In this document: positions 7,561 through 20,015 of the stretch, piece after piece
Numbering within the stretch: the stretch's first letter is position 1
Layout of the letters: each line of letters starts with the position of its first letter
From: Promethearchaeota archaeon
Lineage (GTDB): Archaea; Asgardarchaeota; Lokiarchaeia; Sigyniarchaeales; SOKP01
Assembly: GCA_008080735.1 (NCBI GenBank)
Contig: SHMW01000074.1
Coordinates: forward strand, 1-21,296
Length of the DNA stretch: 21,296 nt
Direction of reading: 5' to 3'
Notes under the pieces: model-generated
The model's database searches: none
What the model saw: the letters and a program-made list of their open reading frames with translations, nothing else
What the model was told of the DNA's origin: nothing
Program-made: the position numbers and the translations under genes

Positions 7561-7634
7561 GCGGAGATGGCTTAGCTTGGTATAGCGCACGGCTGATAAC
7601 CGTGAGGTCGGGGGATCGAAGCCCCCTCCCCGCA
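7561..7634 (+). tRNA. tRNA-Ile (GAT)
   Basis: Acceptor stem GCGGAGA/TCCCCGC (one A-C mismatch), anticodon arm CACGG-CT GAT AA-CCGTG (anticodon 7595-7597), T arm GGGGG-ATCGAAG-CCCCC, discriminator A. No encoded CCA and no intron. Confidence 0.93.
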
Positions 7635-11694: not shown

Positions 11695-11769
11695 GGACTC
11701 GTAGCCTAGCCTGGATAGGGCGTCGGACTTCTAATCCGAAAGTCGCAGGTTCGAATCCTGCCGGGTCCG
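11695..11769 (+). tRNA. tRNA-Arg (TCT)
   Basis: Acceptor stem GGACTCG/CGGGTCC, anticodon arm TCGGA-CT TCT AA-TCCGA (anticodon 11730-11732), T arm GCAGG-TTCGAAT-CCTGC, discriminator G. No intron. Confidence 0.96.
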
Positions 11770-12959: not shown

Positions 12960-15344
12960 TTATCTCCGATTCTCTTTAAACTTAGAATATAGTGCTTTAT
13001 CGAGAAGTTTACCTATTCGTTTTGCGATTTCTTGTGCGATTTTAAATCTTTCTCCATCAAACATATTATTAAATTCTTCCCTATTAGGTATATGATCAAT
13101 ACGATCTTGAAGAATTTTATTTGCGATATTTTTCACAACATTTTCTATTTTTTCTGAACTAGGTAATTTAAAATCAGGATAAAGCGCCTTCATTTTTTCT
13201 CTCGCAAATAAAAAATATTCACAAAACAAATCTAAAGTATCCCCCTCTAACTCGCTATGTAATTTGATATTATCCGAGGCCACTTTAATGTCTTTTTCTT
13301 CCCAATAGAGCTGATTTGGATTAATACCGGGACTGGTTATCCTCATCAATGAGGAGGTTATCCTTCTTTCTATCCAGTTGAGCGTACTTTTTTCTTGACT
13401 TTTTCTAATTTCTTTTCGAATTTTTTCCTTTTTCTTCTCTTCTACTTTTAAAGCTTTTCTAACTTTAAATTTCCTTAAGTCCTCATACTCTTCAAATCTC
13501 TTAATTAAATCATAACCTAAACAATAAGAAATTGGAGAAATCAAATCTTTTTTGAGCTTAATCGGTTTGATTCCCTTATATACGGGGCTAGGTTCATTTT
13601 TTAATTTACTAACTGCTTTTTCGAGTGAAGTTTCAGTTAATCGTGCTAATATGAATCCATTTATAAGAAAAGGTTTATTGTCTGCATCAAATAAGACAAC
13701 TAATTCTTCTTGTCTGTTTTTTAAACGTTGGATTATTAATTCTTCAAATTTAATCCATATCCATTCTTCTGATTCTGTGGTATTATACATTTTTTTAAAG
13801 GCTAGCAGATACAACGCCTTTTCATTTGTTATTTTCAAAAATGCTTCAATGATTCTACTAAGTTGTCTTAATATTTTTGAAAGTAAATAATAATAAGTAT
13901 CCTTTACCAAATTATTAATAATTTTATCGAACTCTAATGAAATTAAAATTTGAGAATAATTCATCAAACCGAGCTTATCCAGAAAAATTTTATCAACGAT
14001 TTCCTTTTTTCTGATAAATTCTCGTAGTTCTACATAACTATTTCCACTTTCTTTTTCAATTTTACCCCATAAATCCTGATTTTTTTCCCTCTCCTCTTTT
14101 AATAAAGCAAGTAAATTGGATTCTTTTATCTCCTCCTGTTTCATATCCAAGAATTCATTTCCTAATTGATTTAATACTTTCTTAGTCTTTACAAGAATGT
14201 TCTTTTTTTTGTCGTTTAATTGGATGATATCAAATTTTTTGATATTATATCTTATCATATTCTTTTTTACTTCCTCTGCGATATCGTCATTCAAGTTTAT
14301 AATTTCTAAAATATTGAAAATTCCATATTTGTTTAGGGTATATACTATTTCTTCAAAGCTCTCTTCATTTAGATTCTGAAGAAAATAAACAAAATCATTA
14401 GGATTTGTGTTGAGTTGTCCTATAAGCTCTTTTTTCATATAAGTGAATATTTCATTCTCAAAATGTTCATAATCAATTTTTTTTTCTAAATTTTCCTTTA
14501 TTTTATTAATAATATTCTTTTTAAGTTCGTTTGCTTCTCGGAAGGAAATTAATCCGGGAACAGATACAGGAAAGCGCTCCATATCATAATTAATAATGCG
14601 TTTTTTAATCATTCTGACTGGCATTGCTTGCATTTTTAATTCTTGAAAGGATTTAAATTCAAAATCTTTCTTGATTTCTTCAATCATCTTATTTAATGTG
14701 GATAATTCAATGTATTTATCTTCTTTCTCCTTCTTTTTTAGTCTCTTTTCTAAATCCATCGAAAGCTCTTTTAGATCTCCACTTTCCTTAAAAATTTCCT
14801 TTTTAATGGTATTATTAATTCCTATAAGATCACCAATCAGATCATAAAAATTAAACGATTTATAATCTAATATGATTGTTCTTAGTTCTTTTTCAAGATA
14901 GTAATCGATTTCCTCTAATACACTCTCTCTCTGACTCTCTAATATATCTGGGTCTCTTATTTCAATCAATATACGTATAAATTTATTTTCAAGGGCGATT
15001 ATTCGAAATAACATGTCAATTTCGGATTGAAATGAATCTTTCAGAAGCTCTTTAACTTCATTAAATATAACCTTCTTTTCCATTAATTCTTGCTTTTTTG
15101 AGGATTCTACTGTGCCCTTTTCCATATCTATCGCTTCCTCAACCCTAATCCCAAGATTATGATAGATATGGATGGAAGCTGTTGATATAAGAAGATCTTT
15201 TAAGGTAAAAGTCTCATCTAATAATTCAAAAATCTTTTGTTTATCTGCGTCTCTTTTAAAATGTGATATAATTAGATCGACAGTTTGAAAATATCGAAAT
15301 GCACTTTCAACGGCGGTAGATTTTCTCTTAATTCCACTTATCAT
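12960..15344 (-). CDS. Large alpha-helical hypothetical protein (~794 aa)
   Basis: Long ORF. The start was moved from GTG15359 to ATG15344, which forms an ATGA overlap with the upstream gene's TGA (15343-15341). Confidence 0.85.
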   Translation of the reverse strand: MISGIKRKSTAVESAFRYFQTVDLIISHFKRDADKQKIFELLDETFTLKDLLISTASIHIYHNLGIRVEEAIDMEKGTVESSKKQELMEKKVIFNEVKELLKDSFQSEIDMLFRIIALENKFIRILIEIRDPDILESQRESVLEEIDYYLEKELRTIILDYKSFNFYDLIGDLIGINNTIKKEIFKESGDLKELSMDLEKRLKKKEKEDKYIELSTLNKMIEEIKKDFEFKSFQELKMQAMPVRMIKKRIINYDMERFPVSVPGLISFREANELKKNIINKIKENLEKKIDYEHFENEIFTYMKKELIGQLNTNPNDFVYFLQNLNEESFEEIVYTLNKYGIFNILEIINLNDDIAEEVKKNMIRYNIKKFDIIQLNDKKKNILVKTKKVLNQLGNEFLDMKQEEIKESNLLALLKEEREKNQDLWGKIEKESGNSYVELREFIRKKEIVDKIFLDKLGLMNYSQILISLEFDKIINNLVKDTYYYLLSKILRQLSRIIEAFLKITNEKALYLLAFKKMYNTTESEEWIWIKFEELIIQRLKNRQEELVVLFDADNKPFLINGFILARLTETSLEKAVSKLKNEPSPVYKGIKPIKLKKDLISPISYCLGYDLIKRFEEYEDLRKFKVRKALKVEEKKKEKIRKEIRKSQEKSTLNWIERRITSSLMRITSPGINPNQLYWEEKDIKVASDNIKLHSELEGDTLDLFCEYFLFAREKMKALYPDFKLPSSEKIENVVKNIANKILQDRIDHIPNREEFNNMFDGERFKIAQEIAKRIGKLLDKALYSKFKENRR

Positions 15345-17659
15345 AATTCTTTTATCCACTCTCTGTATACTTTCTTAAAATTGTCAGATAAATTAAATGC
15401 TATATTTGCTTCTCCCCAATATTTAAAAGCAAAAACCTGAAACAAATCTCCCTCAAATAAATCTAATTCCTCATGAGTAAATTGGTGTCTAAGGATTAAA
15501 TTTGATGGGATGGGTATCAAATCTGAAAAATATTTTAGTTCATTCTCTTTTAAGTATTCATAAAAACTATTCTCATTATTATCAGAGGATATAAAAATCA
15601 AATTATAGTCTGTTTCCCATTCAATATTGAATGTAGAAATCTCTTCCTCAATTTTTTTTCGAAGATATTTTGGAAATTCTGTCTTAATCCCACTAAAATA
15701 TTTATATTGTTCATATAATCTAATTAAACTGTGTTTTTCCTTGCGATCAACAATGTTTGAAATAAAGGTATCCAAAAAATTTACAAAATTATCTGGATCT
15801 CTTGCCTTATATTCTCTCTCTTCAAGATAATTGATAAAATCATTATAAATCTCATATAACGTCCAATTTCTATTCATATCAAGTTTGAAGAACAATTTCG
15901 CATAATCTTTAATCCAATCTAAAATCAAGGATTTCCACTCTAGATTAATCCCTGCTAATCTCTTTTCAAGAAATCTATGGAATTTAGTTGAGAAGGAAAC
16001 AGGGTCAGAGATCTCTTTGTCAGGGATGTCTTTAAGAAATCTATTGATTGTTGAATACCTTAAAATATAACTCAACAAAAAATGTATTTCCCCAGAAAAT
16101 TTTTTAAATTTACTAATATGGGAGTTAATTTGGTTTAATTCCTCCTTGAGATTTATTTCCGCAAAGGATATTATTTCTTTTATACCTAAACCTACATTCT
16201 TGAAAAAATCATCCAAATGATTATTTATTAATCGTGAAAAGTTTTTTTGAATAATTTGTTTATCAAATTTTATCTCATTTTTAGGAAATAATGAATATTT
16301 TTTAATAGTTCTTAGAAGATATTCTTTTAACTCATCTATAAATTTATTTCCTAGCAATCGCACGGGGTTTTCTTCTTTTTCAAATTCTTGTTTAAGATTT
16401 ACAGTTAATCGCTGGATTAATTTTTTAAGCCTAATATTTAAGAGATATTTAGGAAAATTATTTAGAATCGTTTCAAAAGACCTTTTGATTAATTCTGAGA
16501 AATAATTAAAGGATGATTCGAAAAAATTTGCCCTAATATTCACTTTTTCCGTAATTATTCTTTTTATGAAATTTTTCAAAATCTGATAAATATCCTTGAG
16601 ATCTATAATTCCATTTTGTAGGTTTTCTTCAAGGAAATCTCTTAATTTAATTAATATCTCATCTAAATTTCCCTTCACGCCACTAGTTAAGAAATCTCGA
16701 CAGTGTGCGTTAAATACATCAAATTGAGTTTTAATTTCTTCAATTTGCTTCCCAACTAAAGAAATTAGTTTTTTTTCTTCCCAATCATCTTGAATAATTG
16801 GTTTAATATTCTTTAACTTGTTTAAAATATAGTAAGTCAATTTATCTTGAAATTCATCGATTGTCCCGAAATTGGCTAAATTCAATAGATTAGACCCTAA
16901 TTTAAGAGTTTTTTCAGCGACAAATCCCGCACTGGGTTCAGTAATACTAAATTTAAGGTGTTCAAGAGCAGTCTTTCCTTCAAATGGATTTTTAATTTTA
17001 TCAAAATCTATCTCTGTGAAATTTAATTCTAAGGGTTTTTTATGTAAATTAATCTCAATTCTGGATTTCAGTTTGCTATATGTATCTAACTGTTCTTTAT
17101 CAGTGGGTAATGATTCGGATAGACCTATTAATTTTTTATTCCATTTCTCTTCTAATAATTCTCCATATAGTTTTTTACTAAATCTCTGGGCAAACACATT
17201 GTAGACTTGTGTTGTCTCGTTAGTATTGAGATCTGGATGGTTAGCATATTCCTCAACTTCGAAAAATAATTTACTAATATTATTAATCGATTGACTGGAT
17301 TTATGAACGTTTAAATACCCTGTTTCGGGTTTCAGTGCGAGCATTAAACTTTCACATTCTTTATATGTCCCAGGAACTAGCATCATAGATTTAGGATATA
17401 TTCTAGTGCTTGCGGCCTTTTCGTTGAAATTTATTAGCTCAAATTCCACGGCGTATAGTTCTGAACCCGTATAGTCTCTCAGCATAGCATTATACTCTGT
17501 TAAATATTTTATAACATCCTTCGTCAAATCTTTAATAAGATTCTTTGTCAGATTACCTGGACTAATGATATCACCAACCATTAAATTCTCCAAGTTTGGC
17601 GACGAGTATCCATAAATCAATGAGAATTGATAATTAATTGACTCTCTTGTAGTGATCAT
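15341..17659 (-). CDS. Large hypothetical protein (772 aa), mixed alpha/beta ends with long helical middle
   Basis: Long ORF, translationally coupled to the downstream gene; no motif recognised. Confidence 0.85.
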   Translation of the reverse strand: MITTRESINYQFSLIYGYSSPNLENLMVGDIISPGNLTKNLIKDLTKDVIKYLTEYNAMLRDYTGSELYAVEFELINFNEKAASTRIYPKSMMLVPGTYKECESLMLALKPETGYLNVHKSSQSINNISKLFFEVEEYANHPDLNTNETTQVYNVFAQRFSKKLYGELLEEKWNKKLIGLSESLPTDKEQLDTYSKLKSRIEINLHKKPLELNFTEIDFDKIKNPFEGKTALEHLKFSITEPSAGFVAEKTLKLGSNLLNLANFGTIDEFQDKLTYYILNKLKNIKPIIQDDWEEKKLISLVGKQIEEIKTQFDVFNAHCRDFLTSGVKGNLDEILIKLRDFLEENLQNGIIDLKDIYQILKNFIKRIITEKVNIRANFFESSFNYFSELIKRSFETILNNFPKYLLNIRLKKLIQRLTVNLKQEFEKEENPVRLLGNKFIDELKEYLLRTIKKYSLFPKNEIKFDKQIIQKNFSRLINNHLDDFFKNVGLGIKEIISFAEINLKEELNQINSHISKFKKFSGEIHFLLSYILRYSTINRFLKDIPDKEISDPVSFSTKFHRFLEKRLAGINLEWKSLILDWIKDYAKLFFKLDMNRNWTLYEIYNDFINYLEEREYKARDPDNFVNFLDTFISNIVDRKEKHSLIRLYEQYKYFSGIKTEFPKYLRKKIEEEISTFNIEWETDYNLIFISSDNNENSFYEYLKENELKYFSDLIPIPSNLILRHQFTHEELDLFEGDLFQVFAFKYWGEANIAFNLSDNFKKVYREWIKEL

Positions 17660-17866: not shown

Positions 17867-18250
17867 TTGGGCATTACTAATGATGATATTGAAAAAATTT
17901 CCCCCGAAATAACATTTATTACTTCGAATGCAGAAATTGAGGCAATCGCATTAGTTTCTTCAGAGGGATATCAGATCGCTTTTTCCGCCTTACCTCAATA
18001 TCAAGTCGATGGGGATCAATTTTGTGGTCTCGCATCAGCACTATTAATGACCGGAAGATCCACCATTCAGCAGCTTTTCCAAGAAGATCTTAGTGAAATT
18101 ATATTACGTGCTGAGGATGGATACATTGTCATAACTAATGCAGGGAAATTAGTTATTGTCTGTGCGGGAACGGAGATTGATACGATGATGAAAACCGTTA
18201 AAGTTATGAGAGTTGCTGCAAAAAATTTAATTAAAATTTTTGAAGAATAA
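17867..18250 (+). CDS. Roadblock/LC7 (MglB-like) domain protein
   Basis: IEAIALVSSEGYQIA, D...GLASALL..G, L.EIILRAEDGYIVITNAG and a C-terminal helix VMRVAAKNL; 127 aa, TTG start. Confidence 0.88.
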   Translation: MGITNDDIEKISPEITFITSNAEIEAIALVSSEGYQIAFSALPQYQVDGDQFCGLASALLMTGRSTIQQLFQEDLSEIILRAEDGYIVITNAGKLVIVCAGTEIDTMMKTVKVMRVAAKNLIKIFEE

Positions 18251-18403
18251 TTTCTTCCAGCATCCGCATTTAAAGAATCACTAAAATAAAACCCTTTTTC
18301 ACTATTTTCTCTCTAATTAAGAAATGTCATTTTCAACGAAAAGCATAGATTTTTAAATTTTAAAAAATAACTAAAACTAAATAGTTCCTATAATATAAGC
18401 ACA

Positions 18404-18460
18404 ATGGCTCCTGTAAAAATCAATTCTTGGCGTTGGCAGTGGGCTTGGCGTTGGCAATAA
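18404..18460 (+). CDS. Putative Trp-rich leader peptide (MAPVKINSWRWQWAWRWQ) of trpB2
   Basis: ATG GCT CCT GTA AAA ATC AAT TCT TGG CGT TGG CAG TGG GCT TGG CGT TGG CAA TAA: five TGG codons in the last 10 sense codons, directly upstream of a Trp synthase gene. Confidence 0.85.
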   Translation: MAPVKINSWRWQWAWRWQ

Positions 18461-18543
18461 AACGCCTTTGCAATGGACTATTTCAATTGATGTCTTTTTT
18501 CTGATATTTTGATTGCGTTTTCAAAATATTAACATTTTTATTT
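18426..18543 (+). promoter_or_regulatory. Candidate attenuator RNA (alternative pairings plus hairpin and U-tract)
   Basis: GGCGTT (18429-34 and 18447-52) is complementary to AACGCC (18461-66). AAAACGC (18459-65) is alternatively complementary to GCGTTTT (18515-21). Hairpin ATATTTTGA (18504-12) / TCAAAATAT (18521-29) is followed by TTTTTATTT (18535-43), and there is a T6 tract at 18495-18500. Confidence 0.6.
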
Positions 18544-18611
18544 AAATGCATTAATACTATTGATTCCCAATTTTATTATGAAACACATTAAATAAAAAAA
18601 ACGTGTAAATT

Positions 18612-20015
18612 ATGACAGACTATTTTAACGCAAGGATTTTATTAGATCCGAAAGAAGTACCAAAACAATGGGTGAATATTCTACCAGATTTGCCCACACC
18701 TATGACGCCCTTAATTAACCCGATGGATGGGAAACCCGCACCATTTGAATTAGCTGCGGCAATTTTTCCAAAAGAATGCGTAATACAAGAGGTTTCCCAA
18801 GAACCTACCATTCCTATCCCTAAGGAATTAAGGGAGATATATGCGAGATCACATAGACCTACTCCGCTTCACAGAGCATATGGACTTGAAAAGGAATTAG
18901 GAGTAGAAGGAGAGGAAATAAAAATCTTTTATAAGAATGAATCTGTCTCTCCAACAGGCTCACATAAACCGAATACAGCTCTTGCCCAAGCATATTATGC
19001 AAAGGCGGATGGAATAAATGAGTTAGTGACTGAAACTGGCGCAGGGCAATGGGGATCGGGTCTTTCATATGGGTGTTCGCTTTTTAACATTACATGTACG
19101 GTGTATATGGTGAGAGCAAGCTTCCTCCAAAAACCAGGGCGAAAAATTCTCATGCGATCATATGATGGAGAGGTTCATGCTTCTCCTTCACGTTTTACGG
19201 AATCTGGAAGGAGTTATTATGAAAATGATCCGGACCATCCTGGGAGCTTGGGTATCGCTATTTCAGAGGCAGTAGAGCATAGTTTAAGAAGTGAAAAAAT
19301 CAGATATTCCCTAGGTAGTGTTGTGAATTTTGTATGCCTACATCAGACAGTAGTAGGACAAGAAACTCAGCAACAACTCAAGAAAGCCGGAATTGACCAG
19401 CCAGATATTGTAATCGGATGTATGGGGGGTGGTTCTAATTTTTCTGGAATGGCGATTCCGTTTGCTCGAGATAAAATTCGAGGGGATGCTCCAGACATAC
19501 AGATTATAGGTGTAGAACCACGAGCATGTCCTAGTGTATGTAAAGGAAAGTACACATGGGATTATGGAGATTCCGCTAAAAAGGCTCCTATCTTGAAAAT
19601 GCATACTCTTGGTCACAATTTTATTCCCAGCCCAATCCACGCTGGTGGCCTACGTTACCATGGTATTGCACCTATCGTATCCAATCTGTACAATAATGGA
19701 GTAATTGAAGCCACGATGCACCATCAGCTTGAAGTGATAGAGGCGGGTATGTTATTCGCAAAGGCGGAAGGAATCTTACCTGCCCCCGAAACTAATCACG
19801 CGGTAAAAGAAGCGATGAATCAAGCTCTTAAAGCTAAAGAGAAGAACGAGAAGAAGACCATCGTCTTTAACTTCAGCGGTCATGGCTATTTTGATCTACT
19901 TGCTTACAAGGAATACATGACTGGAGAACTGGAGAACTTCGAACTTTCTGAGGAAAAAATCCAAAAATCAATCAATGACGCAGATATGCCTCAGATTGAT
20001 GAATCTGCATTTTAA
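18612..20015 (+). CDS. trpB2: Tryptophan synthase beta chain, type 2 (standalone TrpB2)
   Basis: VPKQWVNI..DLP, RPTPLHRA..LE, SPTGSHKPNTA (PLP lysine), TETGAGQWG, GGGSNF, HAGGLRYHG, APETNHA and FNFSGHG. No trpA in the window. Confidence 0.97.
   Translation: MTDYFNARILLDPKEVPKQWVNILPDLPTPMTPLINPMDGKPAPFELAAAIFPKECVIQEVSQEPTIPIPKELREIYARSHRPTPLHRAYGLEKELGVEGEEIKIFYKNESVSPTGSHKPNTALAQAYYAKADGINELVTETGAGQWGSGLSYGCSLFNITCTVYMVRASFLQKPGRKILMRSYDGEVHASPSRFTESGRSYYENDPDHPGSLGIAISEAVEHSLRSEKIRYSLGSVVNFVCLHQTVVGQETQQQLKKAGIDQPDIVIGCMGGGSNFSGMAIPFARDKIRGDAPDIQIIGVEPRACPSVCKGKYTWDYGDSAKKAPILKMHTLGHNFIPSPIHAGGLRYHGIAPIVSNLYNNGVIEATMHHQLEVIEAGMLFAKAEGILPAPETNHAVKEAMNQALKAKEKNEKKTIVFNFSGHGYFDLLAYKEYMTGELENFELSEEKIQKSINDADMPQIDESAF

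Follow-up and report, generated by a model that had tools for sequence, protein, structure and literature searches.

The closest described counterpart of the RNA analysed here is the enterobacterial trpL leader (RF00513), in which a short ORF with Trp codons precedes the genes of Trp synthesis, a hairpin covers the last Trp codons and the stop codon, U-tracts lie before the structural gene, and the element stands before different trp genes in different genomes. The leader that we describe, located upstream of a trpB2 gene in an Asgard archaeon, is alike in all these respects. It differs in that the host is archaeal, that its Trp codons alternate (WxWxW) whereas those of trpL are adjacent, and that it has no conserved 2:3 antiterminator but a long-range helix joining the 5' end to the segment behind the stop codon; its candidate terminator signal is a U-tract cluster with an AU-rich hairpin, and two further hairpins, H and S, are present. 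As far as we know, every demonstrated case of leader-peptide attenuation is bacterial, and literature searches on archaeal leader-peptide attenuation and on Asgard uORFs yielded none from archaea.

The trp leader of Bacillus subtilis that is controlled by TRAP also carries regularly spaced triplet repeats followed by a terminator. TRAP, however, binds (G/U)AG repeats and needs mtrB, whereas the repeats found here are UGG, in frame and placed between a conserved start and stop; with such repeats, and with no TRAP (PF02081) gene found in the genome, a TRAP-regulated leader was rejected. A T-box riboswitch (Stem I specifier, T-box motif) was likewise set aside, there being no Rfam match to one. 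The Cys-rich short ORF attenuators of mycobacteria resemble this leader as amino-acid-run uORFs that control biosynthetic genes outside the enterobacterial scheme, but they are bacterial, leaderless and specific for another amino acid, and the abstract describing them reports no conserved 5'-3' clamp (bioRxiv 10.1101/834739).

Archaeal terminators are U-tracts bound by aCPSF1, for which a hairpin is not required, and for an aCPSF1 orthologue of Lokiarchaeial origin cooperation with U-tracts is likewise reported (PMC8716108). Since the host is archaeal, U-tracts rather than hairpins are to be regarded as the terminator signal (PMC8716108). The known aCPSF1 (FttA) terminators are similar to the present cluster in holding several U4+ runs within ~50 nt and no GC-rich hairpin (PMC8716108), but they lie at the ends of genes and none is known to act conditionally; here the cluster lies in a 5' leader, behind a putative sensor ORF, and is partly buried in the helices designated P1 and P2.

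The window, i.e. the whole stretch of 21,296 nt that was analysed, belongs to the metagenome-assembled genome (MAG) of a Lokiarchaeial (Asgard) archaeon, and the named relatives at the trpB2 locus are Promethearchaeota/Promethearchaeia MAGs. By sequence comparison, the region 18426-18543, in which the earlier note had seen a possible attenuator, forms the central part of a ~230-nt conserved leader RNA predicted on the trpB2 mRNA, with the following features:

18344 to 18360, plus strand: archaeal BRE/TATA promoter block, with TATA TTTTTAAA at 18350-57
18379 to 18388, plus strand: 5' strand of P1, AAATAGTTCC, right at the 5' terminus of the predicted transcript, pairing with 18475-83
18404 to 18460, plus strand: leader ORF of 18 codons, MAPVKINSWRWQWAWRWQ and stop, with Trp codons starting at 18428, 18434, 18440, 18446 and 18452
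18447 to 18466, plus strand: hairpin Pa, GGCGTT (18447-52) with AACGCC (18461-66), the stop codon (18458-60) lying in the loop
18469 to 18477, plus strand: motif A, TGCAATGGA, consensus UGCAnnGGA, between Pa and the 3' strand of P1
18475 to 18483, plus strand: 3' strand of P1, GGACTATTT, partner of 18379-88 and present in the MFE fold of 18379-18494
18495 to 18500, plus strand: first U-tract, T6, which may signal termination or pausing in archaea
18502 to 18531, plus strand: P2, an AU-rich 11-bp hairpin with arms 18502-12/18521-31, holding two U4 runs
18535 to 18543, plus strand: second U-rich tract, TTTTTATTT, after P2; CUCUUU(U/C)UAAAUG is conserved in relatives
18549 to 18580, plus strand: hairpin H, with base 18549-53/18576-80, apical stem 18559-62/18568-71 and a loop with an invariant UCC
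18583 to 18606, plus strand: hairpin S, ACAC (18583-86) with GTGT (18603-06), its 3' arm at an SD-like position (GGU) before trpB2
18612 to 20015, plus strand: trpB2, a stand-alone TrpB-like PLP enzyme (NF009057, 643 bits)

The position of the BRE/TATA block predicts a transcription start near 18380, and with it a 5' UTR of ~24 nt; across the family, a conserved block, ATTAACTTTTTATAA, lies 56-69 nt upstream of the leader AUG. The leader stop and the trpB2 start are 151 nt apart. No promoter-like motif was found between leader and trpB2, where the promoter PWM stayed at shuffle level, so that the two are read as a single transcription unit; an internal promoter at TTTTTATTT is unsupported, as the tract does not score as one. 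The gene that the leader RNA would regulate is trpB2. In this 93%-complete genome no match was obtained for TrpA, TrpE or a second TrpB, and IGPS gave a sub-threshold match only, so that trpB2 is the one gene found that would form Trp. Judging by the known properties of TrpB2 enzymes, it presumably salvages indole, and it is probably the regulated, indole-salvaging source of Trp where the rest of the pathway is lacking.

The leader ORF was compared over 85 unique family loci, drawn from 30 relatives and then 80 more; these sequences are related to one another, and all the counts given here overstate independence. W-x-W leaders, mostly of 16 aa with 3-5 Trp, are present throughout, with start codon, frame and stop position conserved: the AUG lies ~8 codons before the first Trp and the stop 1-2 codons after the last. 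The five alternating Trp codons of the window follow a strict 6-nt UGG period. The two GGCGTT copies that had been pointed out within the Trp-Arg-Trp codons are indeed there, at 18429-34 and 18447-52, each inside a 12-nt direct repeat, TTGGCGTTGGCA (18427-38 and 18445-56). Trp makes up 1% of residues genome-wide. Among the amino-acid-run uORFs of the genome the leader ranks first (p 3e-8), and no other is convincing. The -1 frame is also open in the window from 18406 to 18503, spanning the Trp codons, motif A and the 3' strand of P1 and ending at a TGA just after the T6; we take this to be chance.

Around the stop codon, the proposed pairing of segment 1 with segment 2 (GGCGTT:AACGCC) proved to be a real helix, Pa, with -9.4 kcal/mol and z -2.4. 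It recurs in the 85 loci as at least six compensating sequence types, including GGCGU:ACGCC, UUGGC:GCCAA, GGUCU:AGACC, GUGUUUU:AAAACAC and GCGCG:CGCGC; it is 93% paired in A3 and is seen in other families too. The main helix, P1, had escaped the earlier note. It joins the 5' end of the predicted transcript to the post-ORF segment and so encloses the whole leader ORF, and it was found in all loci (21, then 85) with unrelated sequences, among them UGAUUUAG/CUAAAUCA, AUUUGGUUUA/UAAACCAAAU and UAUCCUAU/AUAGGAUA. Own partners gave -10.4 kcal/mol against -7.6 for permuted ones (0/2000, 17 thinned lineages), and the segment scan returned a covariation z of -4.8. Depending on the lineage, 6 to 21 nt separate the stop from the 3' strand of P1. 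The GGAC/GTCT stem that had been thought to precede the first U-tract is present at 18475-78/18492-95, but its GGAC belongs to a far better supported helix with the 5' UTR, namely P1.

Between Pa and P1, motif A is nearly invariant in A1/A3 and is retained in the distant families f5 and f6. In many lineages segment 2 and motif A pair inward with the start-codon region, extending P1; in this window the extension is weak (AUGGCU vs CGCC). The pairing signals of segment 2 plus motif A are weak both with the Trp codons (z -2.0) and with the 5' UTR (z -2.1), and an all-against-all segment scan gave no covariation signal between segment 2 or motif A and any downstream segment. The single alternative that covariation backs, if weakly, is thus a choice for the post-stop segment, which may pair with the Trp codons (Pa) or with the 5' UTR and start region (extended P1). 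Opening of hairpin H by motif A was also considered; the pairing AUUGGA:UCCAAU is compatible in most loci, but is contradicted in L018, L019 and L079, with z -1.1, and was rejected.

Downstream of this domain, the T6 at 18495-18500 is present as described earlier, after GGAC/GTCT. In most loci 31-38 nt separate the leader stop from the first T5+ run. U-tracts are enriched behind the leader, with 2.9 T4+ runs per 85 nt in the 85 loci vs 1.6 in the background, and T5+ occurs after the leader in 86% of loci vs 53% of background windows, a baseline reflecting how common U-runs are in 34%-GC DNA. The archaeal pattern of U4+ tracts is seen within 18495-18539, as T6, T4, T4 and T5. The perfect 9-bp hairpin reported at 18504-12/18521-29 is real and extends to the 11 bp of P2 (-9.2 kcal/mol, z -5.0). 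P2 shows 84% pairing over 28 loci, against 34-49% for slid controls, and 6 of its 11 base pairs differ on both sides. P2 is AU-rich, with 3 nt between hairpin and U-run, and a scan for bacterial-consensus terminators found zero terminator-like sites. In the folding of 18400-18615, Pa and the AU-rich hairpin are both in the MFE structure; the overall z of -1.5 is unremarkable, and it is individual helices that stand out, not the fold of the whole region.

Beyond Pa and P2, the earlier note had drawn pairings of the 2:3 kind. Their sequences are in place, with AACGCC at 18461-66 overlapping AAAACGC at 18459-65, GCGTTTT at 18515-21, GCAATAAAA at 18454-62 and TTTTGATTGC at 18507-16. As an antiterminator, however, AAAACGC:GCGTTTT and GCAATAAAA:TTTTGATTGC are confined to this genome and missing from the closest relative, a 92%-identical neighbour, and the 2:3 pairings are no better than cross-locus controls (-8.3 kcal/mol own-locus vs -9.2 cross-locus). 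The comparison across loci came out divided: compensatory changes in Pa and P2, no signal in the 2:3 pairings. What stands of the attenuator logic is the Trp-codon leader, followed by a hairpin that a ribosome must open as it occupies the late UGG codons and then by a second, conserved hairpin accompanied by U-tracts, all before a Trp-synthesis gene; the 2:3 antiterminator pairings and the scheme for breaking 3:4 are not conserved.

The same division appears in the comparison with trpL as a class. The window has the Trp-rich short ORF upstream of a Trp gene (5 Trp in 18 codons) and, in Pa, the 1:2 hairpin over regulatory codons and stop; a match to the Rfam model, a conserved 2:3 antiterminator and a GC-rich terminator hairpin abutting the U-run were not found. 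Rfam gave nothing for the leader at the gathering threshold or at E<=10, with SNORD111 at 21.6 bits, far below threshold. The element would work like trpL, yet it lacks two features that define that class, the match to the Rfam model and the conserved 2:3 antiterminator.

Two more hairpins lie between the second U-rich tract and trpB2. H, which the earlier note did not mention, is 85% paired over 79 sequences, with 9/12 pairs changed on both sides (0/500 shuffles). Its many G-U cells point to an RNA structure and not to a palindrome in the DNA; for this reason, and because its loop and length are variable and the promoter PWM scores at the level of shuffles, an operator or promoter acting as DNA was rejected. 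A covariance model of H (R1) finds one copy per genome, in 51/61 family genomes, always before Trp-pathway genes; a second hit in this genome, which scores 25 bits and is placed at an unrelated ORF's 3' end, was judged to be chance. H is kept in loci that have lost the leader and is thus a separate module. S is weak in the window (-1.5 kcal/mol) and recurs elsewhere with compensating arms (ACAAC/GUUGU, UCACC/GGUGA, AUCAU/AUGAU); together, H and S appear to form a separate, leader-independent module.

The element of leader plus H is present in ~100 related genomes, where it precedes trpB2, trpD or a 90-aa ORF. Where trpB2 is without the element, an H copy and a W-x-W leader (WQMPW in L164/L168) are found before trpD (L167, L171; Pfam). 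The 90-aa ORF with the element lies ~3 kb upstream of a trpB1-like gene (G008, G011, G020). This ORF of ~90 aa is itself conserved behind leader and H (L164:408-, L166:416-688, L168 and L169, from G008, G045, G048 and G053); it has no Pfam family, its best match being DUF6172 (E 0.08), and possibly represents a first gene of the trp cluster that has gone unrecognised.

In six more families of the phylum (f5, f6, f9, f18, f20 and f24), trpB2 likewise has a Trp-rich uORF upstream. Family f9 (L148-L150, L138, L139) has a different leader type, (Q/H)W(H/Y)WGPRGPV and stop, with a GC hairpin, GGGUCC/GGACCC (compensating GGGCC/GGCCC), inside the ORF just after two Trp codons and no U-tracts downstream of it. 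In family f5 (L142, L145) the element is compact: its P1 has 15 bp and shows compensatory changes, Pa, motif A and U6 are there as well, and only ~80 nt lead from the leader to trpB2; a CCCUCU beside its P1 3' strand could mask the GGAGG Shine-Dalgarno.

Taken together, the leader RNA is very probably a ribosome-read sensor of Trp, of a kind so far described only in bacteria. For the reading as a whole, in which the ribosome's position on a translated, Trp-sensing leader would re-fold the post-stop segment and so set read-through of the U-tract terminator cluster, we see a little better than an even chance. The leader ORF would be translated. With Trp-tRNA scarce, the ribosome would stall on UGG, hold Pa open and never reach the stop; the post-stop segment would then zip onto the 5' region, and the RNA up to the U-tracts would be fully structured or covered by the ribosome. 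With Trp plentiful, the ribosome would run to the stop, strip Pa/P1 and leave, exposing the U-tract cluster at 18495-18543. That exposure would determine the frequency of termination at the U-tracts, before trpB2, by archaeal RNA polymerase together with aCPSF1/FttA. We assume the sign, with read-through when Trp is scarce, on the basis of what trpB2 does, and infer termination as the output step.

The fact that Pa and extended P1 are the only covariation-backed alternative favours a choice between them that is set by the ribosome. Folding with ribosome footprint masks, as the earlier note had recommended, bears this out in part, with P1 lost when the mask is on the stop codon and kept when it is on the UGG codons. 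At equilibrium, folding showed no effect of leader state on the downstream hairpins, on H or on the trpB2 start (75 loci for the latter), and the output would therefore have to be kinetic. Also counting against the reading are the variable spacing between stop and P1, the weak inward extension of P1 in this window and the frequency of U-runs in the background. A more specific form, in which the uORF ribosome acts as the gate of an RNA clamp, deciding whether the 5' end zips up and thereby hiding or exposing the U-tracts to a CPSF73-like termination factor, is offered tentatively, as a possibility that we rate well below even.

The interpretation closest to the earlier note is a classical bacterial-type attenuator, in which the freed segment 2 pairs with the P2 loop or 5' arm and blocks an intrinsic terminator formed by P2 and its U-tract. 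The window does contain the AAAACGC:GCGTTTT complementarity (duplex -7.8 kcal/mol), P2 is real, conserved and followed by a U-rich tract, and in a GC-richer relative (L026), with a 12-bp Pa and a strong hairpin plus U6, a 2:3/3:4 scheme can be drawn by eye. Against this weigh the loss of the 2:3 pairing in the closest relative and an own-locus energy no better than cross-locus, together with the lack of covariation of segment 2 or motif A with downstream segments and of any bacterial-consensus terminator; moreover, a hairpin is unnecessary for archaeal termination (PMC8716108), and we regard this attenuator as distinctly unlikely. Somewhat less unlikely, though still improbable, is a Trp-sensing leader whose output is post-transcriptional, P1 guarding against 5'-3' decay or the fold setting access to the trpB2 start. 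Such an output would give the expected sign without termination, and it fits with P1 sequestering the very 5' end of the predicted transcript, with the 3' arm of S overlapping an SD-like element in many loci and with family f5, where ~80 nt separate leader and gene and a possible anti-SD lies beside P1. Predicted accessibility of the trpB2 start is, however, constant across leader states in 75 loci, no covariation links the leader domain to S or to the RBS, and the conserved U-tracts and P2 would be left unexplained.

In a simpler reading of this geometry, P1 could also act with U6 as a terminator that is blocked by a ribosome at the stop, so that expression would rise with efficient translation or Trp supply, or the main product could be a stable paired-end leader RNA of ~115 nt acting in trans. 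P1 is predicted to form except with a ribosome on the stop, its 3' strand runs straight into the U-tract in L006, L016 and L019, and the stop-to-U-tract distance of 31-38 nt resembles the spacing of the bacterial expressome; this terminator would nevertheless have a sign opposite to that expected for a Trp-forming enzyme behind Trp codons, and in most lineages ~10 nt separate P1 from the U-tract, all of which makes this pair of options very unlikely. Least credible of all, with hardly any weight in our judgement, is that the ORF is not a ribosome sensor and serves as a UGG-N3 array for a TRAP-like protein or as the site of a starvation frameshift into a hidden frame that reaches trpB2. The strict 6-nt period is unusual for leader peptides and would suit such a role, but the stop position is conserved, as is an AUG in frame eight codons upstream, the gene for TRAP is missing from the matches in this genome, as stated above, and in all 85 family loci, as in the window, both alternative frames end before trpB2.

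A conserved Trp-codon leader with a covarying fold before Asgard Trp genes implies that ribosomes there read nascent or young mRNA and so control gene output. Should the ribosome-gated clamp be true, archaea would have their first case of conditional (attenuation-type) transcription termination, and there would be direct evidence that transcription and translation are functionally coupled in the prokaryotes most closely related to eukaryotes. In either case the ~230-nt element, compact and mutable, lends itself to tests of transcription-translation coupling, of U-tract/aCPSF1 termination and of control by uORFs in the lineage closest to eukaryotes.

Elsewhere in the window, two adjacent ORFs of 772 and 799 aa on the minus strand (12960-17659) are without a Pfam or NCBIfam match, and tRNA genes at 7561-7634 and 11695-11769 are the only Rfam matches. 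A Roadblock/LC7 (MglB-like) gene at 17867-18250 lies directly upstream of the leader promoter and is the same neighbour in several relatives (L011, L015).
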